A DNA stretch of 58,551 nt from positions 1-58,551 of the IMG/VR virus record IMGVR_UViG_3300011335_000817, one strand, 5' to 3'. Position 1 is the first letter of the stretch. Each line of letters begins with the position of its first letter. The notes below the pieces were generated by a model. The model had not been told where the DNA came from and searched no databases. It saw only the letters and a program-made list of their open reading frames with translations. Origin of the DNA: a virus (taxonomy: Duplodnaviria; Caudoviricetes). Made by a program: the position numbers and the translations under genes. Positions 12,072-43,376 of this stretch are shown here, piece by piece.

Positions 12072-12074
12072 TTT

Positions 12075-16542: not shown

Positions 16543-16553
16543 AAATAAAAAAC

Positions 16554-17105: not shown

Positions 17106-17110
17106 ACTAT

Positions 17111-17920: not shown

Positions 17921-18801
17921 TTCAGATATCTATTCATGTTCTGCCCCAAGAAATAGATCAATTAGAATATCAGCTTCTTCAATTAAAGCAAAACTCTAAT
18001 TATCTAACCCCAGAAAATAAAGTTATAGTGGATGTTGTTTTGAATCTTAATTTAGTAAAATGGAATGAATCTTCTATATCAAAGTCATTTTTTATTGATA
18101 AGTTTAAAAATTTAGAAAAATTAACTCAAACATGGGCTGAAACTAAATTTGAAGCGAATGAGAATGGTACTATACAAGGCTGTGTATCACATCGAAGAAA
18201 AATAGCTAAAGAAACTCAATCAGATGCTGTATTATTATTAGATACTGATATAGTATTTAGCTCTACTTTATTATTTCATTTTATTCATTCAGTTAATGCA
18301 TTAAAAGATACTAATCCATATTATATATTAACTCCTCAAACAACTCCGATGTGGGATAATAGTTGGGATATTATTATTAATGATAAATTTAAAAATGATG
18401 GTATTCATTTTTTAAATAGAGATCCTTACAACTATGCTCAGTGCTTAGGAGAGGTCAATATAAAACCCATTAATGAATTTAAATTTGGAGGTGGATGGGC
18501 CACATTAATTAGCACTCCATTATTCAAATATATAGGAGTACCAGAATCATTAGGACATTATGGTTTGGAAGATACTTATATTATGGTTTGTTCTCAAATA
18601 ATGAAACAAAAAGGAATGAATATTACTCAATTTGTTTTAGAAAATGAAATAATTGTTGAAGATCATTTATTTAGATTTAATCCATATAAAAATTATTTAT
18701 CAATAATAGATAAAAGAGAAGAATTTAAACAAACAGCACATAGTAATTTTCAAAATGAAATAAATAAGTTTGGAGAACTAATAAATAAATATTATATTTA
18801 A
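17917..18801 (+). CDS. Putative GT-A glycosyltransferase
   Basis: LLDTDIVF DxD motif, YGLEDT. Confidence 0.6.
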   Translation: MIQISIHVLPQEIDQLEYQLLQLKQNSNYLTPENKVIVDVVLNLNLVKWNESSISKSFFIDKFKNLEKLTQTWAETKFEANENGTIQGCVSHRRKIAKETQSDAVLLLDTDIVFSSTLLFHFIHSVNALKDTNPYYILTPQTTPMWDNSWDIIINDKFKNDGIHFLNRDPYNYAQCLGEVNIKPINEFKFGGGWATLISTPLFKYIGVPESLGHYGLEDTYIMVCSQIMKQKGMNITQFVLENEIIVEDHLFRFNPYKNYLSIIDKREEFKQTAHSNFQNEINKFGELINKYYI

Positions 18802-18805
18802 TTAT

Positions 18806-19705
18806 ATGAAAAAAACTAATTACAATAAAATATTCATAGCAGGGGCTAATGGAATGTTAGGAACAACACTTCAAAATATTACTAATACTGAAAGATTTTT
18901 GCTTACAGATAAAGATACTTCAGAAAATGTTAGTTGGTGTGATATTAGAGATTTAAAATATACAGCTAATCTAATTAATGAATACCAACCAGATATTATT
19001 TTAAATTTTGCAGCATTAGTAGATTTAGAATATTGTGAAGAAAATCAAGACGATTGTTACTCAACTAATACAATTGCTGCTATTCATTTATTTAATTTAG
19101 CTAAAGATTTGAATATTCCATACGTGTTTATAAGTACAGCAGGAATATTTGGAAATGATAAAGAATTTTATACTGAAGAAGATCAACCATATCCATTAAG
19201 CGCATACGGTAAAAGTAAATACTTTACTGAACAACTATTATTAAACCAGAATTATCCTAAATATTGGATATTTCGAGCAGGGTGGATGATGGGTGGAGGT
19301 CCTGAAAAAGATAAAAAATTTATAAATAAAATTATAAAACAAATTAAATCAGGGGCTAAAGAATTATTTGTAGTTGATGATAAATTAGGTGTTCCTACTT
19401 ACACTAAAGATTTTGCTTTATCTATTTTAAGACATATTGAAGAAAATTTACCATATGGATTATATAATATGGTAAGTCAAGGTGAAGCAAGTAGATATGA
19501 AACTGCTATAGCTATTAATGAATATCTTAATTTAGGATTAACAGTTCATAAAGTAGATAGTAATTACTATAAAGAGGAATACTTTGCTCCTAGACCATAC
19601 TCAGAAAAATTAATAAATAAATCATTAAACGATTTAGAAAGAAATTATATGAGAAATTGGAAAACATGTTTACATGAATATTTAAATGAATATTTTACTA
19701 TATGA
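18806..19705 (+). CDS. RmlD-like NDP-4-keto-sugar reductase
   Basis: AGANGMLG, YGKSK, PTY, APRP. Confidence 0.85.
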   Translation: MKKTNYNKIFIAGANGMLGTTLQNITNTERFLLTDKDTSENVSWCDIRDLKYTANLINEYQPDIILNFAALVDLEYCEENQDDCYSTNTIAAIHLFNLAKDLNIPYVFISTAGIFGNDKEFYTEEDQPYPLSAYGKSKYFTEQLLLNQNYPKYWIFRAGWMMGGGPEKDKKFINKIIKQIKSGAKELFVVDDKLGVPTYTKDFALSILRHIEENLPYGLYNMVSQGEASRYETAIAINEYLNLGLTVHKVDSNYYKEEYFAPRPYSEKLINKSLNDLERNYMRNWKTCLHEYLNEYFTI

Positions 19706-20340
19706 AAAATGTATATGATATAACAAATGAATTTGAAAGACGCTTAGCAGAATATACAGGAGCACCCTATGTTGTAACTGTAGATAATCAATCAAATGGC
19801 TTATTCTTAGCACTAATGTATGAGAATGTTAAAGGAACAGAAATAACTATTCCTTCACGTACATACCCATCAGTACCATGTGAAATTATCCATGCTGGGG
19901 CAAAAGTTAACTTTAAAAAAGTTAAAGGCAAAACATTAAAAGGAGCATATCAGCTAGAACCAACAAATGTATGGGACTCCGCTTTAAGCTTTACAACAGA
20001 CATGTATAAACCAGGAACACATATGTGCATCTCATTTACAGGTCCGTATAAACACTTTAAATTAAGTAAAGGTGGAGCTATATTAACAGACAACTATGAT
20101 GCTTATCTATGGTTTAAAAGAGCTAGATACAGCGGTAGAAGAGAATGCTCATACCATGACGATAATTTAGATATGTTAGGATGGAATTTCTATATGATAC
20201 CAGAATTAGCTACTCGTGGTTTGTTATTAATGAACCAATTTTATAATGGAGAAGGAAGACCTAAACATAATGAAGATCTAGAATTACCTTATCCTGATTT
20301 ATCTAAATTTGAAATTTATACTAAAGCTAATAGAGATTAG
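19702..20340 (+). CDS. Short DegT/DnrJ-family PLP aminotransferase-like protein
   Basis: FERRLAEYTGA, DSA, SF...KH...GGAILT, GWNFYM; only 212 aa. Confidence 0.75.
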   Translation: MKNVYDITNEFERRLAEYTGAPYVVTVDNQSNGLFLALMYENVKGTEITIPSRTYPSVPCEIIHAGAKVNFKKVKGKTLKGAYQLEPTNVWDSALSFTTDMYKPGTHMCISFTGPYKHFKLSKGGAILTDNYDAYLWFKRARYSGRRECSYHDDNLDMLGWNFYMIPELATRGLLLMNQFYNGEGRPKHNEDLELPYPDLSKFEIYTKANRD

Positions 20341-20367
20341 GCAAAATAATTTTAATACATTTATTAT

Positions 20368-21606
20368 ATGAAAAAATTATTAATACTAGGAGCCAACCCA
20401 GAAACTATACCTCTTATTGAAACTGCAAAATCAATGGGAGTTTATACTATTGTTACAGATCCTGATCCTCAAGCCCCAGCAAAAAAGTTCGCTGATAGAG
20501 GAATTAACATTAATGGAATGGATGTAGAGGGAATGGTTGAATTCTGTAAACAAGAAAAAGTTGATGGTGTACTAGTGGGAGTAGCAGATAGATTAATAGA
20601 ACCATATCAAAAAGTAGCTGAAGCTTTAAATTTGCCTTGTTATGGTAATAGATACCAATGTGAAGTACTTACCAATAAAGGTAAATTTAATAACCTTTGT
20701 AAAGAATATGGAATCTTAAATATTCCTTCAATTCCATATCACAAAAACAGCAACATAGAAAATATAACATACCCTGTATTCATCAAACCTATTGATAGAA
20801 ATTCAGGAAAAGGAATGTCTATAGCTTATAATGAGCAAGAATTAAAAGAAGGAATTGAAAAGGCATTTAATAATACAAGTAGTGATTATATTCTATTAGA
20901 GCAATACATGACATGTAGAGATGTTTTAGTAAGCTATACAATTATTGATGGCGAACCTATACTATCAGCAATGGCTGATAGGTACACTTGTAAGGAACAA
21001 AATAAGACAAGTCAAGTGTGTTTAGGAGCTATTTATCCATCTAATTTATTAGAAGTGTATATGAGTGAAGAATATCCTAAAATGGTTAATATGTTAAAAA
21101 ATATAGGATTAAAAAATGCTATTCTTACAATATCAGCATTTGTTGAAGATGATAATTTCTATTATTATGATCCTGGTTTTAGACTTCAAGGTGAAGCTCC
21201 TAATCTCCATATGGAAAATATAAATGGATTTGACCAAAAAAGATTTCTAATAGACATTGCTTTAGGTAATAAATTAAATAAGAATAATATAACTAAAGCT
21301 GATTTTCAAAATAATCATGCTGCTACAATTTGGTTCTTGTTAAAAAAAGGTACAATAGGTCGAATAGAAGGATTTGATAAAATAGAGAAAGATTCTTCTA
21401 TATTTCATATATCAAGACGTTTATTTGAAGGAGATATAATTAGTGAAGAAATGACAGGAACAGAAAGTCAAGTTATGGCTCGAATTTACATGTGTTGCAA
21501 AACAAAACAAGAATTACAAAATAAAATATCAGAAATATATAACACTATAAAAGTATTTGATAAAGATAATAATAATCAACTTATTAATGGATTCAAATAT
21601 GAATAA
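20368..21606 (+). CDS. ATP-grasp protein
   Basis: LILGA N-domain, YPVFIKP...SGKG, LEQYM, RLQG. Confidence 0.85.
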   Translation: MKKLLILGANPETIPLIETAKSMGVYTIVTDPDPQAPAKKFADRGININGMDVEGMVEFCKQEKVDGVLVGVADRLIEPYQKVAEALNLPCYGNRYQCEVLTNKGKFNNLCKEYGILNIPSIPYHKNSNIENITYPVFIKPIDRNSGKGMSIAYNEQELKEGIEKAFNNTSSDYILLEQYMTCRDVLVSYTIIDGEPILSAMADRYTCKEQNKTSQVCLGAIYPSNLLEVYMSEEYPKMVNMLKNIGLKNAILTISAFVEDDNFYYYDPGFRLQGEAPNLHMENINGFDQKRFLIDIALGNKLNKNNITKADFQNNHAATIWFLLKKGTIGRIEGFDKIEKDSSIFHISRRLFEGDIISEEMTGTESQVMARIYMCCKTKQELQNKISEIYNTIKVFDKDNNNQLINGFKYE

Positions 21607-22354
21607 AGAAACATTTGTTATAGCAGGTGGTACTAAAGGAGTAGCTAAACATGTATTGATTGAACTTATTAAAACAGGACATAATGTTGTTTTTGGTGAT
21701 TTAGGTAGTATTGAGGATGCAAATAAACTTTTAAATGAAATAAAAGAATATAGGGGTGAAGCTCATTTTATTTTAACTGATGTAACAAAAGAAACAGATT
21801 GTGAAAATTTATTTAAATTAGCTTTTGATAAATTTGGACGCATAGACGGATTCTTTAGTTATGCGGGAATCACTCCAGCTGAGTCATTACTAGATTGTAC
21901 TGAAAATATACACAATAGTATATTTGATGTTAATGTAAAAGGTGCTATATTTTGTTCTAAATATGCTGTGAAGTATATGAAAGAGAATGGAGGATCAATA
22001 GTATTTACTGGATCACCTCATTCATGGGCTGGAGAAGAGGACAGAGTTTCATATGCTTGTTCAAAAGGAGCTGTAGTTACATTAGCTAATCATATTGCTA
22101 AAAATTATGGAAAATGGAATATACGTTCTAATTATATTACTTTAGGGTGGACTCCTACAGAAGGAGAATTATCTTTAAGAGAAAGTCAAGGAATGTCTGA
22201 AAACGATTTAAGACAATATGCTTCTGGGTTTATTCCTATGGGAAGAATGAATGAATATGATGATATTGTACCCGCTATAATATATCTATTATCTAACAAA
22301 TCTAAAATGGTATCTGGATCTAACATCAGAATTACTGGTGGTTGGTTTATGTAA
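21599..22354 (+). CDS. Short-chain dehydrogenase/reductase
   Basis: GGTKGVA, YACSK, IPMGR, ITGG. Confidence 0.9.
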   Translation: MNKETFVIAGGTKGVAKHVLIELIKTGHNVVFGDLGSIEDANKLLNEIKEYRGEAHFILTDVTKETDCENLFKLAFDKFGRIDGFFSYAGITPAESLLDCTENIHNSIFDVNVKGAIFCSKYAVKYMKENGGSIVFTGSPHSWAGEEDRVSYACSKGAVVTLANHIAKNYGKWNIRSNYITLGWTPTEGELSLRESQGMSENDLRQYASGFIPMGRMNEYDDIVPAIIYLLSNKSKMVSGSNIRITGGWFM

Positions 22355-22365
22355 TTAAAATAGTT

Positions 22366-23574
22366 ATGAGTAATTTATTAGTAAGTATAATTATCCCCAT
22401 TTATAATAGTGAAGCATTTTTAGATAAATGCATTCAAAGTGCTATTAATCAGACCTATAAAAATATTGAAGTTATTCTTGTTGATGATGGATCAACAGAT
22501 TCAAGTGGAAAAGTATGTGATGAATATGCTGCTACAGATAATAGAATTAAAGTAATTCATAAAAAAAATGGGGGATTAGTTAGTTCCCGTAAAGCTGGAC
22601 TTGAATTATCAACAGGAGATTATGCATTATACATTGATGGAGATGATTGGATTGAATTAGATATAATTGAAAATTATATAGATCAGGTTTTAAAATTCAA
22701 TGCTGATGTTATTGTATCCTCTCATATAGTAAATTTAGAAGGTAGAACTGATACTTTAAGAAACTCTTTACCACCTGGTGTTTATAATAAAAACCAACTC
22801 AAATCAATAGTTTATCCTAAAATGTTATATACTGGTAATTTTTCCCAGTTTGGGATATTTTCATATTCATGGGGAAAATTATATAAAAGAGATATACTAT
22901 TAAAAAATCAATTAAGAGTTACTGAAGGAATAACTATTGGTGAAGATGCATTATGTTTATACCCTACATTATTAGATGCTAATGTATTAGTTATTCTAGA
23001 TCAACCATATTATCATTATAGACAACGAGCTGATTCTTTAATTAAGACTTTAAGAACAATTGAACTTTCTAAAATGGAAAAAGTTTATAATGATCTTAAA
23101 GAAATATTTAATGATAAAGGTGTTTTAGATATAATGTTACCTCAACTTCAATATTATCTTTTAAGTTTACTAACGATTAATACAGAAGGCCCTAATCCAG
23201 GTGATAAAGTAAATCTATATCCTTTTGATGAAATTAAACCTAATGATAATTTAGTTATATATGGGGGAGGTACATTCGGTCAACATTTATATAAAAAATT
23301 ATTTTCAAAAACACCACATAATATCTTAGCTTGGATAGATGAAAAACATGAACACTACTCCAAATTAAATTTACCAGTAGAGGAGTTTGAAAAATTAAAA
23401 TCATTAGAATATGATGCTGTAATAATAGCATTAATTGATGAAGATAATTCTAATCAAGCACTTTCAAAATTAGTAGAACATGGAGTTGATAGGAATAAAA
23501 TAATTCAAGTTTCTCATTACAATAAAAAAGAAAATATTAAGAATCTTTTATTAGAATATAAAATTAATTTATAA
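22366..23574 (+). CDS. GT2 glycosyltransferase with extra C-terminal Rossmann-like domain
   Basis: SIIIPIYN, VDDGSTD, IDGDD, GED; C-terminal IYGGGTFG. Confidence 0.9.
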   Translation: MSNLLVSIIIPIYNSEAFLDKCIQSAINQTYKNIEVILVDDGSTDSSGKVCDEYAATDNRIKVIHKKNGGLVSSRKAGLELSTGDYALYIDGDDWIELDIIENYIDQVLKFNADVIVSSHIVNLEGRTDTLRNSLPPGVYNKNQLKSIVYPKMLYTGNFSQFGIFSYSWGKLYKRDILLKNQLRVTEGITIGEDALCLYPTLLDANVLVILDQPYYHYRQRADSLIKTLRTIELSKMEKVYNDLKEIFNDKGVLDIMLPQLQYYLLSLLTINTEGPNPGDKVNLYPFDEIKPNDNLVIYGGGTFGQHLYKKLFSKTPHNILAWIDEKHEHYSKLNLPVEEFEKLKSLEYDAVIIALIDEDNSNQALSKLVEHGVDRNKIIQVSHYNKKENIKNLLLEYKINL

Positions 23575-23575
23575 T

Positions 23576-24394
23576 ATGGAACTAGTTTTCTACGCAGGAT
23601 CAAGTTTATTAGAAGGACCTATTTGGGACAGTAAAAATAAGTTAGTATATTGTGTATCAATAGAGCAAGGCATTATCTATCAAGTCAACCCTAACTCAGG
23701 AGAAGTACAATCTTTTCCTACTCAAGGAAGTGTTGGTTGTGTAGCATTAATGGAAAATGGAAATTTAATTTCAGCAGAAAAGGAAGGTATTTTCGAAATT
23801 AATCCTAAAACTAAAGAAAGAATATATATTACCCAATTTGAATCAGATGTAAATTTACGTTACAATGATGGTAAGTTTGATCCAATTGGAAGATTTATTG
23901 TAGGAACTAAAAGTGAAAAAGATTTCTTTGTTGAGAAAGAAATTGTTAAAGGTAAATTATTTTCATATTATAAAGGAGAACATAAAGTATTATTAGATAA
24001 TCTATTAATATCAAATGGAATTGGGTTTTCTCATAATAACGAGAAAATGTATTTTATAGATTCACCTACAAAGAAAGTAGATCAATACAAATATAATTTA
24101 AGTATTGGTGATATAGAATTTGAAAAACATATTGTTGAGATTGAAGGTGAGAGTGTCCCAGATGGAATGTGTGTTGATTTAGATGGAAATATATGGGTAG
24201 CAGAATGGGAAGGAGGAAGAGTTCGTAAATGGGACGTAAATACAGGAAATATATTAGATGAAATAATGTTACCATGTCCAAGAGTAACTTCGTGTTGCTT
24301 AGGTGGAGATGATTATAAAGATTTGTATATTACAACTGCTAAAGATGATAAAAATACTCTTGGAGGAGCGTTATTTAGACAAAAAATAAAATAA
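23576..24394 (+). CDS. SMP-30/gluconolactonase family protein
   Basis: EGPIWD, RYNDGKFDP, SNGIGFS, PDGMCVD, LYITTA. Confidence 0.92.
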   Translation: MELVFYAGSSLLEGPIWDSKNKLVYCVSIEQGIIYQVNPNSGEVQSFPTQGSVGCVALMENGNLISAEKEGIFEINPKTKERIYITQFESDVNLRYNDGKFDPIGRFIVGTKSEKDFFVEKEIVKGKLFSYYKGEHKVLLDNLLISNGIGFSHNNEKMYFIDSPTKKVDQYKYNLSIGDIEFEKHIVEIEGESVPDGMCVDLDGNIWVAEWEGGRVRKWDVNTGNILDEIMLPCPRVTSCCLGGDDYKDLYITTAKDDKNTLGGALFRQKIK

Positions 24395-24395
24395 T

Positions 24396-24977
24396 ATGAT
24401 TACACCATCAAAATTTGATAATGATACCTTTCTTATAGCTAGAGATCATCTTAATTCATTTATTAATAGGGTAGCTGAAGGAAATAATACTGATGATAAA
24501 AAATTACTAGAGATAGGTCCACAAGAACGATCAGAAGTTAAAAAAGCATTTAATAAATGTCAAATTGAAACCTTAGATATAGTCCCGGACTACAACCCAG
24601 ATATTATAGGAGATATTACAAAATATAATTCCCATATACAAGATTCAACATATGACATTGTAACTTGTCTAGAAATACTTGAACATACAATTAATCCATT
24701 TGCAGCGATTGAAGAACTTAAACGCATTACAGTAGATGGAGGATTAGTGTTATTTTCAGCTCCATTGAATTGGAGAATCCATGGTCCCGTTCCTGATTGT
24801 TGGAGATTTACTGAATTTGGGTGGAAAGTATTACTAAAAGATTTTGATATAATTGAAATAGATAAATTAGAAACTCCTGATAGAAATTTATTTCCAATTA
24901 AATATAACATATTAGCTAAATGTAATAAATTAAAAAACATAGATGTTTATTCTATGAAATTTGAACCTTTAAAATAA
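24396..24977 (+). CDS. SAM-dependent methyltransferase
   Basis: LEIGP, CLEILEH, DCWRFT. Confidence 0.85.
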   Translation: MITPSKFDNDTFLIARDHLNSFINRVAEGNNTDDKKLLEIGPQERSEVKKAFNKCQIETLDIVPDYNPDIIGDITKYNSHIQDSTYDIVTCLEILEHTINPFAAIEELKRITVDGGLVLFSAPLNWRIHGPVPDCWRFTEFGWKVLLKDFDIIEIDKLETPDRNLFPIKYNILAKCNKLKNIDVYSMKFEPLK

Positions 24978-24984
24978 GTAATTT

Positions 24985-25683
24985 ATGAAAATGCATATAT
25001 TTTATTGCCATTATAATGTAACTGGTACTGACCATAGAGGTAGACCCCAGTGGTTTGACTATGAAAAATGTTTTATTAATCTTTTAAATACAATTAAAAA
25101 CAAAGAAAACATAGAACTTCATGTAATAATGGATGGTACTATTGACAATAATTGGATAAGTAAATATAAAGATAAATATATTGCTCATGAGATTATAACA
25201 ACTCATGATATGGATTCTGTAACAAAAGGAGTATATCCTATCATAAAAGAGACTAAATGTAAAGATACAGATCTTGTTTATCTTTTAGAAAATGATTATT
25301 TACATGTAGATAATTGGGTAGATAAAATTTTTGATATTTTTCAAACATTTGAAGGATTAAATTATATATCTTTATATGATCATGGAGATAAATATTGGCA
25401 TCCTAATTATGATGATCTAGTATCTAAAATATTTTGTTCTAATACTCATCATTGGAGAACAATGATGTCTACTTGCGGTAGTTATGTTACAACTAAAAAA
25501 ATATTTGATGAAGATTTTGATGATCATACTGGGGTTACAATTCCAATAGGAGATCACCATAAATGGTTATTCTTAAATGAAACTAAAGGCAGATTCCTTC
25601 TAACAGCAGTACCAGGTTTATCTACCCATTGCATGGATGCCTTTTTATCACCTACTATTGATTGGAAAAAAATAAATAATTAA
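24985..25683 (+). CDS. Putative glycosyltransferase
   Basis: YLLENDYLH, SLYDH, PGLSTH; island context. Confidence 0.6.
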   Translation: MKMHIFYCHYNVTGTDHRGRPQWFDYEKCFINLLNTIKNKENIELHVIMDGTIDNNWISKYKDKYIAHEIITTHDMDSVTKGVYPIIKETKCKDTDLVYLLENDYLHVDNWVDKIFDIFQTFEGLNYISLYDHGDKYWHPNYDDLVSKIFCSNTHHWRTMMSTCGSYVTTKKIFDEDFDDHTGVTIPIGDHHKWLFLNETKGRFLLTAVPGLSTHCMDAFLSPTIDWKKINN

Positions 25684-25686
25684 AAC

Positions 25687-26478
25687 ATGAGTATAAGCTT
25701 ACTAATCCCCACTTACCGAAATCCAGAATATCTAGATATTTGCTTAAAATCAGCAATTGAAAATCAAGTAAATAAAAATGAAATTATTGTTGCTATTGAT
25801 GGATACATTGAAGAAAGTCAACATGTATTAGACAAATATAAAGACGATATTGTAGTTTTAGATTTAGGAGAAAATCAAGGTTTTCAAACTGCTCATAACC
25901 TAGCAGTTATGAATGCTACTAATGAGATAGTTTGCATTATAAATGATGATAATGTGTTATGTAAAGATTGGGATAAGTTTATAGAACAAGATTTTGATTT
26001 AAATACAGTTATGACTGTAGAGCAAATTGAACCTGTAGGTCCTAGTATATTTAATTTTCATATTAAAGATTTTGGTAAGAAACCAAATGACTTTAAATAT
26101 GATGAGTTTTTAAAATATGAATTAACTATTAGAGAAAATAAGTTAACTGAAGATGGTGGTGTATTTCCGTTTGTTATATCAAAGAAAAATTACATGATAG
26201 TAAACGGATTTGACACCTTATATCCTTCACCTTATGTATGTGATTGGGATTTCTTTTTAAAATTAGATCTTAATAATGTTAAATTCTGTAAAACACACAA
26301 TATTCATTTCTATCATTTTGGAAGCTCAGTACTAAAAGGAAAGGAAGGAGATAGATTTGCCGCTTCTCATAACCCAGCAGCAGAAACATTTTACTATAAA
26401 TGGGGAATGGGACCACAATTATTCAAAAATAATAGTCATAAACCATCAAACCATACTCTTAAAGGAATTAAATTTTAA
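25687..26478 (+). CDS. GT2 glycosyltransferase
   Basis: IPTYRN, INDDNV, NGFD, DWDF. Confidence 0.88.
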   Translation: MSISLLIPTYRNPEYLDICLKSAIENQVNKNEIIVAIDGYIEESQHVLDKYKDDIVVLDLGENQGFQTAHNLAVMNATNEIVCIINDDNVLCKDWDKFIEQDFDLNTVMTVEQIEPVGPSIFNFHIKDFGKKPNDFKYDEFLKYELTIRENKLTEDGGVFPFVISKKNYMIVNGFDTLYPSPYVCDWDFFLKLDLNNVKFCKTHNIHFYHFGSSVLKGKEGDRFAASHNPAAETFYYKWGMGPQLFKNNSHKPSNHTLKGIKF

Positions 26479-30556: not shown

Positions 30557-30627
30557 TGTGACATGGTGTAACGGTAACACTACAGATTTTGATTCTGTCA
30601 TTTCTGGTTCGAATCCAGGTGTCACAT
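30557..30627 (+). tRNA. tRNA-Gln(TTG)
   Basis: Acceptor tgtgaca/tgtcaca, anticodon arm acaga-ttTTGat-tctgt, T-loop ggttcgaatcc; CCA not encoded. Confidence 0.93.
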
Positions 30628-30718
30628 CAAACTTGGAGCACGAGGAGATATTATAAGAGGAGTGCTTAACGCATAAGCGGCTAACCCGTTATAACGTTTC
30701 CAGTGAAGTATCTCAAAT

Positions 30719-30886
30719 AGTCAGGTGATGGAATTCTAAGCATGACGAACAATTTTACATTGTGAGGATGATTGCAGAGAAGCGGAAGACATTATGGCAA
30801 GTAACTGAATCCTGAAGGCAGCAACCTAATGGCAGTAAGTGAATCCATACCGGACGCGGTTACAGGTTCAAGTCCTGTCCTGACTA
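30719..30886 (+). ncRNA. tRNA-like RNA copy A (168 nt), large structured insert
   Basis: agtcagg/cctgact-a acceptor, acagg-ttcaagt-cctgt T-arm; no canonical D or anticodon arm. Confidence 0.75.
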
Positions 30887-30947
30887 CAACCCGTCGGAAG
30901 CTCATCATGACCCGAGTGAGATGAAAACGCGGATATCGGGTCTTCAT

Positions 30948-31018
30948 AGTCAGGTGGCGCAATTGGTAGAGCATGGTAATAAAACTACCTAGTGCAGGTT
31001 CGAATCCTGTCCTGACTA
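30948..31018 (+). ncRNA. tRNA-like RNA copy B (71 nt), atypical cloverleaf with nominal AAA anticodon
   Basis: Same acceptor and T-arm; D-arm gcgc-aattggta-gagc; 4-bp stem ggta-ataaaac-tacc. Confidence 0.75.
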
Positions 31019-31082
31019 CAGCTAAATGGTTCTCACTGACAAAACTGTAAAGGAAGTGGTGACAGCTGGAAAGACAGCACAT

Positions 31083-31210
31083 AGTCAGGTGGCGGAGTGG
31101 ATAGACGCTAGGTGGTTCAAATCCACGCATCACGGAAGACGTGGCAGGGCTACGGAGTCCTAGATAATACTCAGAAGATTGTTGTGCAGGTTCGATTCCT
31201 GTCCTGACTA
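31083..31210 (+). ncRNA. tRNA-like RNA copy C (128 nt), four hairpins replace anticodon/variable arms
   Basis: Same acceptor and T-arm; Leu-type D-arm ggcggagtggatagacgc. Confidence 0.8.
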
Positions 31211-31334
31211 CTTGATCAACAAAGCATTCATGTTAACCCGGACTTGTGGGGTGCTTTGAAAAACAAACAAGAAAGGGAGTATCGTTATTTTGCTGGTTTT
31301 GAAGATTCGGTATGCTCAACAAATCAGCAGTACT

Positions 31335-31406
31335 GCGACTATGGTCAAGGGGTTAAGACGCCTCCCTTTCACGGAGGAATCACGAGTTCAAATCTCGTTA
31401 GTCGTA
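31335..31406 (+). tRNA. tRNA-Glu(TTC)
   Basis: Acceptor gcgacta/tagtcgt, anticodon arm cctcc-ctTTCac-ggagg, T-arm acgag-ttcaaat-ctcgt. Confidence 0.93.
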
Positions 31407-31744: not shown

Positions 31745-32147
31745 GGGCCTGACGTGGCTTTTGACAGCAATGCGAAGGGTAAGTATACACGCAGAGGTAT
31801 GGTTCTAATCCTCTTTAATAATTGAACAAAACTATAAACGACAACAAAATCGCTCGTCAAGAAGAAGGTGCTAGAATTATCAACATGGCTTTTGCCAATG
31901 TAGCTTTAGCTGCCTAGTATCTACGGATACTTTCTTTCCCTGGCAACTTGGGTGAAACAGTAAGTTGCAACGAATGAAATGTTTTTCTGCTTTTCTCAAA
32001 AGTAGATGGTGGAGCGGCCGAAAGGCCCTAACAATTACGGTGCAAAATAACGGGGATTCATCCTCTTGATTATTTAGTACTAAGCGTGTGAGACGTTATA
32101 CTTATTGCTTACTTTGTTGGACGAGGGTTCGATCCCCTCCAGGTCCA
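31745..32147 (+). ncRNA. ssrA: tmRNA
   Basis: 5' GGGCCTG pairs with 3' CAGGTCC-A including the G3:U wobble; T-arm gaggg-ttcgatc-ccctc; tag frame 31840-31917 DNKIARQEEGARIINMAFANVALAA*. Confidence 0.93.
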
Positions 32148-32186
32148 CAACAGTTACTGTTCTTTGACATATAGGAGAAATAAAAC

Positions 32187-35514: not shown

Positions 35515-35724
35515 ATGAAATTAGCACTTAAATTTTTATTACTCCTAATACACTATATTGTGGTAGCAGTAATTGTATATTATATTGGTGACCTTATGAC
35601 TAAAGATACTAGTGGTGTTGGTGTAGGACCTAACGCTTTAGTACTATTACTCTTAATAATAAGTGTAATACAACACACAAAACAATTTATTTTATCATTT
35701 AAAAACAAAAACACACAGTTATGA
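35515..35724 (+). CDS. Small membrane protein
   Basis: Two hydrophobic helices, upstream of the SPFH gene. Confidence 0.6.
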   Translation: MKLALKFLLLLIHYIVVAVIVYYIGDLMTKDTSGVGVGPNALVLLLLIISVIQHTKQFILSFKNKNTQL

Positions 35725-36671
35725 TTGGATTTTTAATTTTCATTTTAGCGATGCTTATTCTAGGATCAAGCTTCGGAGTATTTAACTTCAAAAACTATAC
35801 CATTGTCCAAGAAGGTAGATATGGTACAGAAACAAAAACAAACACAAAACAGATTACTAAACTAGTAGTTGTTGTAGTAGCATCACTTTTACTAGCAGCT
35901 ATTAACCCTGTAACAGTAGAACGTATTGATGTTGGTAATGTAGGATTAAAAGTAAATAACACCGGAGATGAACGAGGTGTTAGTAAGACAGCTTATGTAA
36001 CAGGATGGGTATTCTACAACAGCTGGTTATCACGAATTAAAGAATTTCCTGTAACGCAACAACACATTGATTATGAAGAAACATCTATCATTACTAAGGG
36101 TGGCTTCCAAGCAATAATCAAACCAAGTTTCAACTGGTCAGTTAATCCAGGTAATGCAGCTGATATGTATCAGAATCTAAAGCAAGATGTAGATCAAATT
36201 AAAGACACCTGGTTAAAGAATGCTATTATAGGTGCAGTTAATGATGTAGCTAACTTATATAGTGTAGATAGTATCTTCAACCACAGAGCTGAATTTGAGG
36301 CGGATATAGTTAAAGAATGTAATAAACGCGTTAGTAAGTGGTTTAATGTTAGTCAGTTAAGAACTAATATAGTACCACCTAAAGAAATTACTCAAGCGAT
36401 TAATGCTAAAACAGCTGCTGTACAAGAAGCACAAGCCGCTATTCAACAAAAGATAGTAGCTGAAGCCCAAGCACAAACACAGATTGCTAAAGCTAAGGGT
36501 GATAGTGCACAAGCAGTTATTGCAGCAGCTGGTAGAGCAGAAGCTGTAAAGAAAGAACAACAGTTCTTAACACCATTGTATATAGACTATCTTAAAGTAC
36601 AAAAGTGGAAAGGTGATGTACCAACTACAGTATTAGGTTCTAATAGTAATACGTTGATAAGTTTACCATAA
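35721..36671 (+). CDS. SPFH/Band 7 membrane protein
   Basis: N-terminal TMs, ERIDVGNVGLKV, A/Q/E-rich coil, QKWKGDVP. Confidence 0.88.
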   Translation: MIGFLIFILAMLILGSSFGVFNFKNYTIVQEGRYGTETKTNTKQITKLVVVVVASLLLAAINPVTVERIDVGNVGLKVNNTGDERGVSKTAYVTGWVFYNSWLSRIKEFPVTQQHIDYEETSIITKGGFQAIIKPSFNWSVNPGNAADMYQNLKQDVDQIKDTWLKNAIIGAVNDVANLYSVDSIFNHRAEFEADIVKECNKRVSKWFNVSQLRTNIVPPKEITQAINAKTAAVQEAQAAIQQKIVAEAQAQTQIAKAKGDSAQAVIAAAGRAEAVKKEQQFLTPLYIDYLKVQKWKGDVPTTVLGSNSNTLISLP

Positions 36672-36942: not shown

Positions 36943-37377
36943 ATGCACGCAGACATTAATGAATTAGTTGGCAAGACGCTAACCAAGATAGATAAAACAC
37001 ACGACGAACTAATCTTCCATTGCGAGACAGGAGAGATGTATAAGATGTACCACTCTCAGGATTGTTGTGAAAGTGTTAGTATAGACGATATTAATGGTGA
37101 TTTAGACGACCTAATAGATACACCAATCCTTAAAGCAGAAGAGGTATCCAATAAAGACTTTGTAGATACGTTCAAGAATAGGTTTACTGTTGAGGGTGGT
37201 TGGACTAGGAAAGATAATGAAGGAAACTATGAACCAGAGAGCTACACCTTTACATTCTACAAGTTAGCAACTATAAAAGGGTATGTAGACATTCGTTGGT
37301 TTGGAGAATCAAATGGCTATTACTCAGAAGGTGTAGATTTTAAAAAGGCAGACGAGAATGGAAATTATGGCTGGTAA
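36943..37377 (+). CDS. Conserved phage protein (HxQDCCE / SNGYY family)
   Basis: [30 protein letters not shown]. Confidence 0.7.
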
Positions 37378-37965: not shown

Positions 37966-38142
37966 ATGAGTAAAGAATTATTAACTAAATTATTAAAGGC
38001 CGCTCAAGAAATTGATAGAACACCTAAAGCCAATTATATCCATCTTTCCGAAGAATTCATTCAAACTAAGGCTGACGAAAATGGTGTTACATTTGATGAG
38101 ATGATAGAGATTATTGAAAATGAACTAAAACCAAAACAATAG
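37966..38142 (+). CDS. Hypothetical protein (below ORF-track cutoff)
   Basis: 58 aa MSKELLTKLLKAAQE... Confidence 0.55.
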   Translation: MSKELLTKLLKAAQEIDRTPKANYIHLSEEFIQTKADENGVTFDEMIEIIENELKPKQ

Positions 38143-38148
38143 AAAGTT

Positions 38149-38544
38149 ATGAGTAACGAACAACAACAGATTATTGATGAGGCGTATAAAAGATATCATA
38201 GCCAAACAATTATCAAATCAAAAGATTTAAAAGATTTTGAAGAATTAGATGGAATGGATTTAGGTACGGGTGAATGGAAAAAAGTGCATCGACAATACGC
38301 ACCAAAAGAGTTCATCAACAAATGTAAAACAGACCCAGAGTTCTCTGAAAAGTGGGGATTACAGATTGAGGAAAAAGAGTTGAGTTTGGAAGAGAGGGTT
38401 AAGATTCAAATGTCTAATGTAATGTATTCAGGTAGAGTAAACTTTGAGGAAGAATACCTAAAAGAAGTGTGTGATAAAAACAATGTCCCAACCCGACTAA
38501 TAACAATAACATATAAAGAACAAACAATAGAAAGTTATGAATAA
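38149..38544 (+). CDS. Stand-alone ThyA-insertion-like protein, paralog 1
   Basis: Shares blocks with 38731..39072 and with the insertions of the downstream ThyA. Confidence 0.75.
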   Translation: MSNEQQQIIDEAYKRYHSQTIIKSKDLKDFEELDGMDLGTGEWKKVHRQYAPKEFINKCKTDPEFSEKWGLQIEEKELSLEERVKIQMSNVMYSGRVNFEEEYLKEVCDKNNVPTRLITITYKEQTIESYE

Positions 38545-38734
38545 AGAAAAATATGAACTTGCGGTAGGCATGTACCAACAATATCAAAAGGATGTAGTTA
38601 AAGTAGGTGTGCCTATAAACATTTATCAAATAAAAACATTACAACTACTTGAAAAAAACTTTAGAGATTATCAAACAATTAAACCAAAATGGTATCAAAA
38701 ATTGATAGGAGCATTTAAAAATAGAAAGTTATGA
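38537..38734 (+). CDS. Hypothetical protein
   Basis: ORF track, between the two paralogs. Confidence 0.6.
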   Translation: MNKEKYELAVGMYQQYQKDVVKVGVPINIYQIKTLQLLEKNFRDYQTIKPKWYQKLIGAFKNRKL

Positions 38735-39072
38735 ATAACGAACAACAACAGATTATTGATGAGGCGTATAAGAATTATTGTAAATCTTTTGAAAATCAAT
38801 CGATTATTGAACAGAACTCCTATGATACTGAACCTATTACTAAACAAATGTTTATAGATAAAGTAAAAAACCTTGATTGGTTCTCTGAAAAGTGGGGATT
38901 AAAAATTGAGGAAAGGGAGTTGAGTTTGGAAGAAAGATATAAACTTGACCACCATTTTGATTGTTTAATTGGCGAATACCCTGAGCACCACATTACGCTA
39001 GATGAAAGAGGTGTTCCTTGTAAACTAATCACAATAACATATAAAGAACAAACAATAAAAAGTTATGAATAA
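38731..39072 (+). CDS. Stand-alone ThyA-insertion-like protein, paralog 2
   Basis: NEQQQIIDEAYK, FSEKWGL.IEE.ELSLEER, LITITYKEQTI.SYE shared with paralog 1. Confidence 0.75.
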   Translation: MNNEQQQIIDEAYKNYCKSFENQSIIEQNSYDTEPITKQMFIDKVKNLDWFSEKWGLKIEERELSLEERYKLDHHFDCLIGEYPEHHITLDERGVPCKLITITYKEQTIKSYE

Positions 39073-40195
39073 TATAGATAAAGCATACACAGATCTACTC
39101 CAAGACATACTAGATAATGGAGTAACTAAACAAGATCGAACTGGTACAGGAACTAAAAGTGTATTTGGTAGACAGATCAGACATAAAATGAGTGAGGGTT
39201 TTCCTTTACTAACAACGAAGAAGATGCATTGGAAGTCAATCGTGACGGAGCTCATCTGGTTTCTTAGAGGCGATACAAATATCAAATACCTTGTAGATAA
39301 TGGATGTCATATTTGGGATGGCGATGCATATAAGAATTACCACAAACAATGGAAAACAGAAGAAACTCAATACACAAAAAACTTCAATACATCTTTACCG
39401 CTCGAGCTGATAAAAGAGAGAGACCTAACAAAAGAAGAGTTTATCAACCGTATCAAAACCGATGATGAGTTTGCAAAGACGTGGGGTGAATTAGGACCGA
39501 TATACGGAAAGCAGTGGAGAAATTGGGAGAAATGTGAATTAACCAATGATGATGATTTTGGAGATGATACATCTTGGGGTGATTGGAATATTAAACAAAT
39601 AGACCAAATCGCAAACTCAATCCATCTACTTAAAACAGACCCCGATAGTAGAAGAAACAAAGTATCGGCTTGGAATGTAGGTGAGTTAGACCAAATGACG
39701 CTTCCACCCTGTCATACTGATTTTCAATTTTATACGAGAGAGTTGAGCTTAGACGAGAGATTAGACCTTATGCGAAAAAGAACAAGAGACGGAACAGTTG
39801 ATTACGATAATAGACACCATAGATTTTTAGATTATCATAATATACCAACCAGAGCAATCTCTCTAATGTGGAATCAACGTAGCGTTGACACTTTTTTGGG
39901 TTTACCATTCAACATAGCAAGTTATGGTTTGTTGTTAGAGATTATTGCTAAGGAAGTGAATATGGTTCCTGATGAATTGATTGGTAATCTAGGTGATGTA
40001 CACCTTTACAGTAACCACATCGAGCAAGCTAAGGAACAGATTAGTAGAGAGCCGTTTGAATTACCTAAATTAAATATACTGCACAATCCATGTAAGGATA
40101 TAGCACCAACAGATATATCATGTTATAACATATTTGATTTTGAATTAATAAACTATCAATCACACCCAGCAATCAAAGCACCACTAAGCAATTAG
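39065..40195 (+). CDS. thyA: Thymidylate synthase with insertions
   Basis: DRTGTGT, PLLTTKK, LGPIYGKQWR, LPPCH, QRSVD, GLPFNIASY, DVHLY. Confidence 0.97.
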   Translation: MNNIDKAYTDLLQDILDNGVTKQDRTGTGTKSVFGRQIRHKMSEGFPLLTTKKMHWKSIVTELIWFLRGDTNIKYLVDNGCHIWDGDAYKNYHKQWKTEETQYTKNFNTSLPLELIKERDLTKEEFINRIKTDDEFAKTWGELGPIYGKQWRNWEKCELTNDDDFGDDTSWGDWNIKQIDQIANSIHLLKTDPDSRRNKVSAWNVGELDQMTLPPCHTDFQFYTRELSLDERLDLMRKRTRDGTVDYDNRHHRFLDYHNIPTRAISLMWNQRSVDTFLGLPFNIASYGLLLEIIAKEVNMVPDELIGNLGDVHLYSNHIEQAKEQISREPFELPKLNILHNPCKDIAPTDISCYNIFDFELINYQSHPAIKAPLSN

Positions 40196-40526: not shown

Positions 40527-42515
40527 ATGAAAAAATTAGTTTTGCTGTTTACGTTAATCGTTACAATGTTCACGGCGCAAGCAAGAAAGTTCTATTTTAG
40601 TGCAGCCGGAAATGACAGCTACACAACAACACAAGCACAAAATCCATTAACACCATGGAAAACATTAGCTAAGCTAAACAGTTTAAGTAGCATCGCAGCT
40701 GCAGGTGACACATTCGCTTTTAAAAGAGGCGAAATATTCGCAAATGGTTCTAATATTGGTAACACCGGTTCTGTAAAATGGTTTGGTGGTGGCTACGAAG
40801 GTAGAAACTTTCCATCAGGTACAGCTGCTAATCCAATCGTATTTACTTATTATGGTGATATGTCTTTAGAAAGACCAAATTTGTTGTATCCAAACCCAAC
40901 TACATTAGCTGGTAACCAAAGAAATGTACTAGCATTTGCAAATGTCAGCTACATAGTAATTGACGGTATTCAATTCAACGACACTAGATTTCCAATTAAT
41001 GATAAAAGATCAGGCGCATTTACTTGTGCTGGGTTATGGTTTGGTGATTCAGGCTATTGTAATGATAGCGAATTATGCAAATGCAGTAATATTACTATTA
41101 AAAATTGCAACTTTAGTAATATAGTGTATGGAATAGTTTGTTTTATGAAAGATGCTGAGATTACAAACAATACATTTAGTAACTTCAAATCTAGTGGTTA
41201 CTTATCAGATACATTAGGTAATAACGATATTGGTGCTGACCCTATTATATGTTCAGGAGCCCGTCTTAGAATTACCAATAACAGGTTTACTGGTTCATGG
41301 GCATATTGTAATCCAAACACATCAAGTAGTGGTTTATTAGGTGGAGCATTAGAAACCATTAATGATTTTGATAGTTGTTTTGTTGCATACAATACCTTTA
41401 TTGATTGCAGTGGTGGTATGGAATTTGGTACAAACGTAGCTGGTGGATATAAAGGTCCAAATGACGATACGATTTGTTATAATAAATTTATTAATTGTTC
41501 TAATATTACATTTTTAAATACTACAGGTCAATTTGGTACTCAAGCAAAAAATGTTCACTTTTGGAATAACTTTTTTGTTGAGGGTAGTAAATCAAGATTT
41601 AGTGGTTATGATGCTGGTGGTGATGCTATGGGAGATGGTCAAACATATGCAAACACAGGATTTATATTTTGGCCACCATATCCACCTAATAAATCAACAC
41701 GCTATCCAGCATCACTAAACTTCCAAAATGCCTGGCGCCCAGTTGCATCTGGCGTAACTACTGGACAATTAGCTGATACAGTCTTTGATATTAGAAATAA
41801 CGTATTTTGGATCAACAATGGTTTCTTTGCTAAATACTCAACATCGGAACGCGGTAAAATATTTTATAAAAACAACATCTATCACCTAGTTAGTGGTTAT
41901 CAAAACCCAGCTGAAGGGCCGTTTACACCTACATCATTAGGTAGTAGTTCAGCTACAACACTATCTACAGGTGAAAAAATAATTAACAGCAAATTGATTG
42001 TTGATAGCTCTAATGTGTACCCACAATATTGGGATATGAGAATTGCTAGTGATACGTCATATGCGGTTGCAGGTGGTACAGATGTAGGATTAACAAGAGA
42101 TTTTGATGGTAATCCAGTAACTGGAACACCGTCAATTGGAATATACCAATATTATAGTACAGTGAGTATTGACTCGTGTAAATTTACTTATGGATCTTGG
42201 TCTACTTGTACTAATGGTTTCCAAAAACGATCATATACATTAAGCTCAAGCAATTGTATTGGGTTACCACCATTAGATAGCATTCAACGAACATGTACTG
42301 TTACTACTATACGTAAATTCTATTACGATCCTACTAGAATAGCAATATACATTGAAAGTAGCATACCAGGACAAATGTTGATAACTAATACATCAGGTTC
42401 AGTTGTTAGAAACGTTACTTACAGAGCAAATGGACAATGGATTAGTGTTAGAAACTTTGCACGTGGTGTTTGTTTCGCATCTACTCAAGGACAAAGTATC
42501 ACTTTCATAAGATAG
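40527..42515 (+). CDS. Secreted right-handed beta-helix protein with TSP1-like repeat and T9SS CTD-like tail
   Basis: Signal peptide, GND...PWKTL, N-rich coil repeats, DFDGNP...PSIGIYQY, WSTC..G.QKR, CTD-like C-terminus. Confidence 0.7.
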   Translation: MKKLVLLFTLIVTMFTAQARKFYFSAAGNDSYTTTQAQNPLTPWKTLAKLNSLSSIAAAGDTFAFKRGEIFANGSNIGNTGSVKWFGGGYEGRNFPSGTAANPIVFTYYGDMSLERPNLLYPNPTTLAGNQRNVLAFANVSYIVIDGIQFNDTRFPINDKRSGAFTCAGLWFGDSGYCNDSELCKCSNITIKNCNFSNIVYGIVCFMKDAEITNNTFSNFKSSGYLSDTLGNNDIGADPIICSGARLRITNNRFTGSWAYCNPNTSSSGLLGGALETINDFDSCFVAYNTFIDCSGGMEFGTNVAGGYKGPNDDTICYNKFINCSNITFLNTTGQFGTQAKNVHFWNNFFVEGSKSRFSGYDAGGDAMGDGQTYANTGFIFWPPYPPNKSTRYPASLNFQNAWRPVASGVTTGQLADTVFDIRNNVFWINNGFFAKYSTSERGKIFYKNNIYHLVSGYQNPAEGPFTPTSLGSSSATTLSTGEKIINSKLIVDSSNVYPQYWDMRIASDTSYAVAGGTDVGLTRDFDGNPVTGTPSIGIYQYYSTVSIDSCKFTYGSWSTCTNGFQKRSYTLSSSNCIGLPPLDSIQRTCTVTTIRKFYYDPTRIAIYIESSIPGQMLITNTSGSVVRNVTYRANGQWISVRNFARGVCFASTQGQSITFIR

Positions 42516-42584
42516 CTTTGGGAGGCAAAATCTAGATTGTATCTTTATCGTGTTAAAAAATTAAAAACCAAAAACGATAAAGTT

Positions 42585-43376
42585 ATGAATCAAGAATTAA
42601 ACACAAGCAGTATGATGACCAGCAAAACATATTCGCTGGATGAAATTAAAACATTAGCCCCATCAGTATTTACTACTGATAAAGCGCCTCACCTAACAGA
42701 CAAATATATCCAAACACCAACATCACGTGTGGTTGAGGATTTGATGAAATTAGGATGGCAAGTAACTAAAGCACAAGAAGTTAGATCTAAAAAGTATAAG
42801 GGATTCCAAAAACACATTATCGTGTTTAGACACCCAGATATTCAGATTAAGGGTAAAAATGGTGATGATGCATTTCCACAGATCCTATTAACAAATAGCC
42901 ATGATGGTAAAGCAGCATTTAATTTTAGAGTAGGTATTTTTAGATTGGTGTGTAGTAATGGATTGGTTGTTAGTGATGCTGATTTTAGTAATGTGAGCAT
43001 CCGCCATATGAATTATACATTTGAATCGTTACAGGCGAAAGTAAACGAGGTAATTGAGAAGTTACCAGGTCTGGTACAGAAGATTAATTTGTTTAAATCA
43101 ACAAAATTAACCGCTGAACAAATGGCTGAGTTTGCTTACAAAGCAGCTACATTTAGAACTAAAGCTAAGGTTAGTGTTGATGAATTATTAGCTGTAGAGC
43201 GTGATGCTGATCATGGTAATGATTTATGGGCTGTGTTTAATAGAGTACAAGAGAAAATACTTGGCGGTTCATTTAGATCAGGTAAGCGTAAGTCACGTTC
43301 AGTAACATCATTCCAAAAGGATATTGAGTTAAATGAGCAATTATTTGAATTAGCAGGTTCATACCTGACAGCATAA
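42585..43376 (+). CDS. DUF932/DUF945-family protein
   Basis: APSVF, LLTNSHDG, GIFRLVCSNGLV, LWAVFNRVQE. Confidence 0.88.
   Translation: MNQELNTSSMMTSKTYSLDEIKTLAPSVFTTDKAPHLTDKYIQTPTSRVVEDLMKLGWQVTKAQEVRSKKYKGFQKHIIVFRHPDIQIKGKNGDDAFPQILLTNSHDGKAAFNFRVGIFRLVCSNGLVVSDADFSNVSIRHMNYTFESLQAKVNEVIEKLPGLVQKINLFKSTKLTAEQMAEFAYKAATFRTKAKVSVDELLAVERDADHGNDLWAVFNRVQEKILGGSFRSGKRKSRSVTSFQKDIELNEQLFELAGSYLTA

Follow-up and report, generated by a model that had tools for sequence, protein, structure and literature searches.

Phage mini-genes that match the insertion regions of a neighbouring thymidylate synthase, and the exchange of their hypervariable cassettes among related loci

In the 58,551-base viral contig IMGVR_UViG_3300011335_000817 (the whole of which is here called the window; CheckV completeness 34%), two small open reading frames (ORFs), A and B, stand upstream of a thymidylate synthase gene (thyA) and encode only the regions that are inserted into that enzyme, ThyA. 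Our preferred reading, to which we give a probability of about 0.6, is that these mini-proteins belong to a phage-restricted family that came from insert-bearing thyA, that they form a stand-alone version of its bipartite insertion domain and act in trans, and that their cassettes are exchanged. Alignments of the family showed three conserved blocks separated by two regions, V1 and V2, that differ wholly in sequence and length. A preliminary description of this DNA had called attention to the three ORFs; all of them exist as described, and the motifs that it quoted from ThyA and the small ORFs are present letter for letter.

The four genes of the block follow one another head to tail in the order ORF A, a 65-amino-acid (aa) ORF, ORF B and thyA. 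The window has a G+C content of about 32% and its + strand carries nearly all the long ORFs; the closest DNA relative of its thyA is the thyA of Flavobacterium phage immuto, at about 71%. The features are given below in nucleotide (nt) positions, with block and cassette limits taken from an hmmalign-based extraction.

38149..38544, + strand: mini-gene A, 131 aa, a free-standing paralogue of the ThyA insertion domain (ORF and translation; family-profile match, E 2.6e-69)
38149-38196, 38305-38397 and 38482-38544, + strand: blocks 1, 2 and 3 of A, the last with the stop codon
38197-38304 and 38398-38481, + strand: V1 and V2 of A
38537..38734, + strand: interspersed 65-aa ORF, unrelated to the mini-family, overlapping the stop of A by 8 nt and with its own stop overlapping the start of B
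38731..39072, + strand: mini-gene B, 113 aa (family-profile match, E 3.6e-38), with its stop overlapping the thyA start by 8 nt
38779-38844 and 38938-39009, + strand: V1 and V2 of B
39065..40195, + strand: thyA, 376 aa (PF00303, E 1.8e-94), catalytic motifs intact
39323-39487, + strand: insert 1 of thyA, with V1 at 39341-39433
39527-39598, + strand: middle variable stretch of thyA
39734-39892, + strand: insert 2 of thyA with its flanking strands, V2 at 39761-39838
38140..38152, 38528-38540, 38722-38734 and 39056-39068, + strand: gene-junction motif TA(G/A)AAAGTTATGA

Each of the two mini-proteins matches the enzyme in two collinear segments. For A, these are residues 48-70 against ThyA 119-141 (E 8e-6) and residues 59-130 against ThyA 216-277 (E 1e-7), while the two segments of B gave E values of 2e-5 and 1e-5; A and B are 45% identical to each other (E 5e-20). 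In agreement with this, a profile built from 121 family members matched the thyA DNA at 39323-39487 (E 3.5e-10, profile positions 18-77) and again at 39734-39892 (E 3.2e-8, profile positions 82-134). Only the equivalents of ThyA 87-141 and 216-277 are present in A and B, and the mini-proteins retain both beta strands that flank insert 2. These matches bear out the earlier proposal that the free ORFs are ThyA insert segments without the core. It had also stated that the variable loops of A, B and ThyA are wholly different, and we indeed found no mutual similarity among them. Neither A nor B matched a Pfam family at E <= 1, and searches of Pfam and PHROGs returned nothing for A, B or the 65-aa ORF. 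Since A and B have no catalytic core and no Pfam match, they are derived fold fragments and not members of the thymidylate synthase family. That short AT-rich ORFs resemble thyA by chance or through their composition has only the low G+C of the window in its favour, and we assign it a negligible probability: the two-segment matches are collinear both in pairwise and in profile comparisons, and DNA tracts in related loci are up to 98% identical. This explanation was refuted by the profile matches on thyA together with the position-specific sharing of cassettes and the tract of locus L011, both described below.

ThyA covers positions 1-265 of the 266 in the PF00303 profile, and its best solved relatives match at E 2e-75. 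It carries the motifs DRTGTGT (at residue 24), DSRR (194), PPCH (214), QRSVD (271), FNIASY (282) and GDVHLY (310), which we take to supply the catalytic cysteine (in PPCH), the phosphate-binding arginine motifs and the QRS.D, N and H.Y elements. Insert 1 aligns with the insert of solved thymidylate synthases of 315-321 residues (PDB 4dq1, 3uwl and 1lca) and presumably is the long-known small-domain insert of the Lactobacillus casei type; ThyA residues 1-229 align continuously with 4dq1 and 3uwl across the ~50 residues of this insert, and the alignment takes in the conserved helix that precedes the GELG motif. For insert 2 (ThyA 230-265) we found a counterpart in no solved thymidylate synthase. 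After the QWR.W motif comes a third hypervariable stretch (ThyA 155-178, nucleotides 39527-39598), to which nothing in the mini-proteins corresponds. Among 90 ThyAs it is 8 to 270 aa long; in locus L040 it takes the form of an insert of about 270 aa without a Pfam match. Sixteen of the 90 ThyAs (loci L007, L017, L023, L051, L052 and 11 others) have a fourth in-frame insert, placed after the AKEQI helix and with flanks like those of insert 2. Cassettes of this fourth insert formed 16 pairs with V2 of mini-proteins and 22 with V2 of ThyAs, compared with 1, 0 and 0 pairs with V1 or the middle stretch, and because they match V2, the V2-type module is portable between three contexts. ThyAs with two inserts are essentially viral: among the best 80 bacterial loci, one encodes a phage-type long form (60% identical), two encode proteins of about 316 aa (40-43% identity) and the rest proteins of about 262-273 aa. 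The first of these, L163, is a 2225-base contig from a metagenome bin labelled Terrimicrobiaceae, and probably belongs to a phage whose sequence was binned with a bacterium.

An AlphaFold2 model of A, made with 121 sequences, gave a compact alpha/beta fold with a predicted local distance difference test (pLDDT) of 89.5 and a predicted template modelling (TM) score of 0.75. The model contains helices at residues 3-22, 52-61, 63-69, 80-90 and 101-110, strands at 71-77, 116-122 and 125-130, and a hairpin predicted within V1. The helices and strands of the mini-protein correspond to those predicted in the insert regions of ThyA, one-to-one and in the same order; these regions reached pLDDT 70-83 in a ThyA model (19-row alignment) with a mean pLDDT of 56 and an unmodelled core. 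When the BFVD viral fold collection was searched, ranks 1-3 were family members (E 5e-10 to 5e-9), and ranks 4 and 5 were the thymidylate synthases of phages 201phi2-1 and RisingSun (probability 0.98 and 0.97, with a TM of only 0.31-0.35). For the Atlas model of A, the nearest structures were viral thymidylate synthase clusters (TM 0.51 and 0.49), and a protein language-model search with A gave no usable match by features. Taken together, the models lend moderate support to the idea that the mini-protein would be an excised insertion lobe of the enzyme. That the two inserts make up one domain, as had been proposed, was supported indirectly, through the compact predicted fold, the one-to-one order of its elements and the fold matches to thymidylate synthases.

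Homology to ThyA was seen both for the strand at 71-77 (ThyA 217-226) and for that at 116-122 (ThyA 263-275), the latter being the counterpart of the LSCQLYQR segment of the human enzyme. According to PMC8041318, this octapeptide binds the monomer-monomer interface of human thymidylate synthase and inhibits the enzyme. Mini-proteins could in that case be subunit mimics, with interface strands that bind the monomer of a thymidylate synthase (from the host, a competitor phage or the phage itself) and inhibit or regulate dTMP synthesis, and with variable cassettes that set the target specificity. Arrays of mini-genes that adjoin thymidylate synthase genes of two subfamilies, described below, would be in line with this. 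We nevertheless regard such mimicry as quite unlikely, since in the predicted monomer a third strand joins these two in a small sheet, against which the protein's own helices pack, and since mimicry offers no clear reason for many paralogues with different cassettes. A complex prediction of ThyA with A scored 0.02 against a mark of 0.32 and was counted neither for nor against binding, and a literature search for a phage-made thymidylate synthase inhibitor yielded no useful description.

With A as the query, 1468 of 1476 candidates at E <= 0.01 were homologues; they measure 72-230 aa and none has a Pfam domain. A search of all 1.84 billion cluster representatives gave 615, 438 and 87 matches at E <= 1e-3, 1e-10 and 1e-30, the 615 being representatives at 50% identity, and the best 150 of the representative matches were all 88-221 aa long. 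Mini-proteins contain one or two copies of the V2-type module. Forms of greater length are rare, at 2 of 166 candidates (one a read-through fusion and one with two V2-type modules). Among individual proteins, P0125 (234 aa) has two V2-type modules in tandem, and P0072, P0054 and P0124 are read-through fusions with an upstream small ORF. A tblastn comparison with 50,697 deposited phage records produced no mini-family match, and in 185,579 bacterial and archaeal species, with one genome each, 0 of 76 pattern matches were confirmed as mini-family. Pfam and PHROGs hold no model for it, and its profile, run against the sequences of solved structures, found no thymidylate synthase and only a chance repeat protein (E 0.024). 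The mini-family is large, uncharacterised and confined to phage or metagenome data.

The setting of the mini-genes was counted in 78 IMG/VR loci, in which thymidylate synthase was sought with ThyA core-only queries. There is one copy in 36 loci, two in 25, three in 10, four in 6 and eight in 1. The arrays are tandem and same-strand, without a single copy on the opposite strand in the 78 loci, and they lie mostly just upstream of a thymidylate synthase gene. Such a gene is found in 57 of the loci, insert-bearing in 36 and insert-less in 21; of the 21 loci that show none, 11 have less than 2 kb of downstream sequence. The insert-less form (L005, L006, L019, L025, L038, L044, L046, L058, L067 and L071 among others) is usually followed by a GIY-YIG gene, and its presence suggests thyA replacement within a conserved gene order. 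Homing endonuclease genes of the GIY-YIG/NUMOD1 kind are present in 31 of the 78 loci, directly next to or inside thyA; the 2-kb region of the window has none. In four loci the endonuclease gene splits thyA into two ORFs exactly within V1:

L002, 5551-7690: split thyA
L061, 4921-6960: split thyA
L074, 4317-6434: split thyA
L078, 5407-7395: split thyA

The pieces measure about 105 aa and 270-323 aa, and the second has its own start. No Rfam intron model reached its gathering score in the split loci, an absence that carries little weight, and no group I intron was found. As a homing site for the endonuclease that splits V1, we also looked for an unsplit V1 of the split-thyA type among 90 ThyAs and 239 mini-proteins and found none. 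GIY-YIG enzymes are described in PMC5009752 as targeting thymidylate synthase genes (I-TevI in T4 td and I-BmoI in Bacillus mojavensis thyA), and PMC10448857 has nuclease genes marking exchange boundaries in phages.

Between loci, the conserved blocks of the mini-genes showed a proportion of synonymous differences (pS) of 0.33-0.56 and of nonsynonymous differences (pN) of 0.15-0.23. The resulting pN/pS of 0.34-0.50 indicates conservation as protein, beyond that of DNA alone. Within a cassette type, pN/pS was 0.25 at a pS of about 0.5, a ratio that is biased downwards by the setting of types at 50% identity or more. Judged from these comparisons, the cassettes look like discrete, long-lived, constrained alleles and not like fast-drifting junk. 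Mini-genes might instead be functionless fragments of thyA, left by endonuclease-triggered break repair and unequal recombination. The homing endonuclease genes, GIY-YIG or other, in 31 of the 78 loci, the thyA genes split by them and the read-through fusions with neighbouring small ORFs in P0072, P0054 and P0124 would all be expected of such debris. We consider it very unlikely, however, as hundreds of diverged members keep their frame and a common start and end, with pN/pS of 0.25-0.50 at pS near 0.5, the compact fold is predicted with confidence, and the family persists beside insert-less thyA.

To follow the cassettes, we compared only the variable segments, namely V1, the middle stretch and V2 of 90 distinct ThyAs and V1 and V2 of 239 distinct mini-proteins. 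V1 of ThyAs and V1 of mini-proteins formed 51 pairs, involving 16 of the 90 ThyAs, and V2 formed 64 pairs, involving 23, with an identity between shared cassettes that reaches 100%. Four cross-position controls gave 0, 1, 2 and 0 pairs. Typing yielded 115 V1 types and 144 V2 types, of which 13 and 15, respectively, are common to ThyA and the mini-genes, and 223 mini-proteins displayed 170 V1xV2 combinations with 21 four-gamete violations. Cassettes reassort freely as discrete, individually conserved alleles.

At the DNA level, 23 tracts of at least 80% identity and at least 90 nt are shared by mini-genes and thyA, and all of them lie in V1 (7) or V2 (16). The V1 tracts end at ThyA residues 85-90 and 136-141 and the V2 tracts at 224-230 and 259-268, each tract corresponding to one cassette with its conserved flanks. 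More than 90% identity over at least 60 nt was seen in 61 pairs, and in related loci such tracts reach 98% identity. In L011, the mini-gene and the thyA of the same locus are identical at 122 of 125 nt across V2 and its flanks, the remainder being diverged; within-contig sharing of tracts was weak in L007 and L017. In the window, the blocks of A and B are near-identical (40/41, 50/54 and 47/49 nt) and their cassettes are unrelated, which points to a recent duplication with cassette replacement or to conversion between the copies. V2 of the window ThyA is 88-96% identical to V2 of the ThyAs in L068, L083, L084 and L081, whose V1 differ, and V1 of B resembles that of the L116 ThyA (71% over 21 aa, E 1e-13).

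When contigs from four river or freshwater runs were compared with the window, they accumulated on the conserved blocks. In some of them the flanks are joined across other cassettes (for example 39327 to 39426-39461, and 39747 to 39838-39852); at 85% likeness and with short sides, these have their probable origin in other phages. The run that is the likely source yielded contigs of the window form only, so that loop swapping, which had been suggested as something to look for in reads, found no support in this phage, in a comparison of assembled contigs, which drop rare variants.

The copies had also been proposed as recombination donors. In a donor array, the mini-genes would mainly store cassettes to be copied into the expressed thyA by gene conversion, and this copying would alter either the surface of ThyA or the DNA target of a homing endonuclease. 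Tandem same-strand arrays upstream of thyA, cassettes and flanks held in common with thyA, tracts that end in conserved blocks and the 122/125-nt tract between the mini-gene and the thyA of L011 are all consistent with such storage, and so is the splitting of thyA inside V1, a sequence that may govern susceptibility to endonuclease invasion. However, no array was present within 6 kb in 75 of the 79 loci with an insert-bearing thyA, 21 of the 78 arrays flank a thyA without acceptor sites, the mini-genes have complete reading frames, N and C termini peculiar to the family and a history of purifying selection, A and B offer no usable DNA homology to the thyA of the window, and the contigs of the likely source run show a single form. 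Donation as the purpose of the arrays was weakened by these counts (arrays at 4/79 loci, 21/78 insert-less neighbours) and by the complete, selected ORFs, and we hold it to be unlikely. Since the ORFs are selected, most insert-bearing thyA genes lack arrays and 21 arrays stand at insert-less thyA, a role as pure silent donors is improbable, and from this we infer that a role as trans-acting proteins is favoured.

Under this preferred reading of trans-acting insertion-domain copies, the family would descend from a phage thyA that carried the inserts and then lost its catalytic core. What was left would be a domain made of the small-domain insert, two central beta strands and the hairpin insert, that is, three blocks with two cassettes. 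Cassettes could be exchanged when the conserved flanks recombine homologously, or undergo gene conversion, over short tracts; breaks made by the endonucleases are the probable stimulus, as the co-location of the genes suggests, and unequal recombination between near-identical blocks of neighbouring copies may reshuffle V1 with V2. Working in trans, the proteins would present copies of the ThyA domain with a variable surface and serve as decoy or competitor for whatever recognises that domain, and the part of the arrays as a cassette pool would be a consequence of the trans-acting proteins and not their purpose.

Several observations weigh against this reading. Twenty-one of the 78 arrays lie beside an insert-less thyA of 279 aa, whose best solved match is 1b02/1bko, and 10 loci with at least 3 kb of downstream sequence show no thymidylate synthase gene. 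Conversely, a mini-gene occurs within 6 kb in only 4 of 79 insert-bearing thyA loci (343-441 aa), and in only 2 of 65 in the subset with at least 3 kb upstream. Linkage of the mini-domain to thyA, which had been proposed as a check, is seen from the side of the arrays (thymidylate synthase in 57 of 78) and is weak from that of the insert-bearing thyA genes, and the family proved partly independent of insert-bearing thyA, being tied to either thymidylate synthase type. The longest DNA that A or B shares with the window thyA is only 12-14 nt and no cassette of A or B matches the window ThyA, so the exchange between mini-genes and thyA is established for the family and not for this genome. Recombination of variable loops, as put forward in the preliminary description, hence holds in related genomes, through position-specific sharing and the L011 tract, and does not extend to the window. 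Homologues were sampled by similarity to A, which over-represents the V1 type of A, and the within-type pN/pS carries the downward bias mentioned above. The link between endonucleases and exchange is one of co-location. Concerning the fold, the ThyA model is too poor to show both inserts packing as they do in the mini-protein. Among solved structures, a whole-model Foldseek search gave a best E of 0.17 and matched no fold, thymidylate synthase included, and VIA-align matched none among 48,161 solved chains (best Z 3.5); the absence of a solved-fold match may be due to the mini-protein joining segments that are far apart in the enzyme.

A bolder version, which we offer as a speculation with little probability, would place the ThyA insertion domain in an arms race and make the arrays a two-level phage counter-measure, with decoy proteins on one level and a DNA cassette library on the other. 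The recogniser would then be a host immune sensor or competing element that reads the protein surface, or homing endonucleases that read the coding DNA. A library of pre-tested, foldable cassettes could replace the loops of the enzyme by way of the conserved flanks, which would amount to an antigenic-variation-like system around a core metabolic enzyme of a virus.

The junction motif TA(G/A)AAAGTTATGA has 8 + strand sites in the window against 0.37 expected. It sets each start codon over the end of the previous gene (ATGAATAA overlaps), and the four sites outside the gene block are at other gene starts (34407, 49455, 50659 and 52749). Its reading frame differs between the end of A and the end of the 65-aa ORF. 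Its presence at unrelated gene starts, together with the differing frames, identifies it as a start context at the DNA or RNA level, and it partly explains the conserved 'IESYE-stop' C terminus of the mini-family. As a recombination site the motif was rejected, given that it occurs at unrelated gene starts too. Homologues of the 65-aa ORF were seen once within another array (L046) and once fused to a mini-protein (L053).

Elsewhere in the window, the block has as neighbours genes for an SPFH/Band 7 protein (35721-36671), a DUF7448 protein (36943-37377), a 662-aa protein without a Pfam match (40527-42515) and a DUF932 protein (42537-43376). The contig also carries a full-length transfer-messenger RNA (tmRNA; 87 bits, E 1.6e-32) and three tRNAs, at 31745-32150 and 30557-31406, and its region 12000-26000, dense in ORFs of 190-410 aa, has a G+C content of 26-29% compared with 31-41% elsewhere.

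Few enzymes are as conserved or as well studied as thymidylate synthase, and here an aquatic phage lineage carries it with three or four swappable hypervariable cassettes, while part of that lineage keeps arrays of free-standing copies of the variable surface. Our results delimit an uncharacterised family of several hundred sequence clusters and mark thyA as a hub for mobile elements, where the gene may be split, flanked by endonucleases or replaced by a thyA of another subfamily. Should recognition be what drives the variability, whether by host defence, competing phages or homing endonucleases, a new battleground would open up at an enzyme of nucleotide metabolism, and the cassettes would amount to a natural collection of loop modules, able to fold in two or three protein contexts and useful for protein engineering. 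In the literature, supplements apart, we found no description of hypervariable phage thymidylate synthase cassettes or of free-standing insert genes.

When compared with solved long thymidylate synthases (1lca, 4dq1 and 3uwl), insert 1 is at the same place and alignable, but its centre is hypervariable here, insert 2 is additional and the insert regions also exist as separate genes. The Neisseria pilE/pilS and Borrelia vlsE systems use gene-conversion cassettes for surface variation. As in both, the partial copies at the array loci stand in tandem ahead of a full-length gene and point the same way, short conserved stretches frame the variable segments, and the tracts exchanged in related loci end in conserved flanks. 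Unlike the silent copies of pilS, the mini-genes have a full reading frame and a conserved start context, are selected and have a confidently predicted fold; and, in contrast to both systems, the full-length gene encodes a metabolic enzyme of a phage, most full-length thyA genes stand without a nearby array and some arrays lack an acceptor in their neighbourhood.

The nrdA gene of phage Aeh1 is reportedly kept in pieces by mobE, a free-standing homing endonuclease gene. The thyA genes of L002, L061, L074 and L078 are similar, with collinear pieces around an endonuclease gene and no intron model matched, whereas the window thyA is intact, the cut in the related loci falls inside V1, and the mini-genes are devoid of any core segment and are not halves of the gene. 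The GIY-YIG/NUMOD1 genes that adjoin or interrupt thyA in 31 of 78 loci recall I-TevI and I-BmoI; unlike those intron-borne enzymes, the endonuclease genes here appear free-standing. Diversity-generating retroelements likewise produce localised hypervariability in a phage gene, but the cassettes described here differ in length and in their whole sequence and are discrete, conserved alleles, and we found no template/variable repeat pair among A, B and thyA. Rickettsia palindromic elements are in-frame mobile peptide modules, and the V2-type module (RELS.EER - variable - IPT[KR]) resembles them in being placed in frame at two ThyA sites; it differs from them in that no palindromic ends were seen, its interior is variable and its spread looks homologous, by way of the flanks. 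The mechanisms, gene conversion through flanks and endonuclease-associated mosaicism, are of known kinds, and what is new is a core metabolic enzyme accompanied by a family of stand-alone copies of one of its domains.

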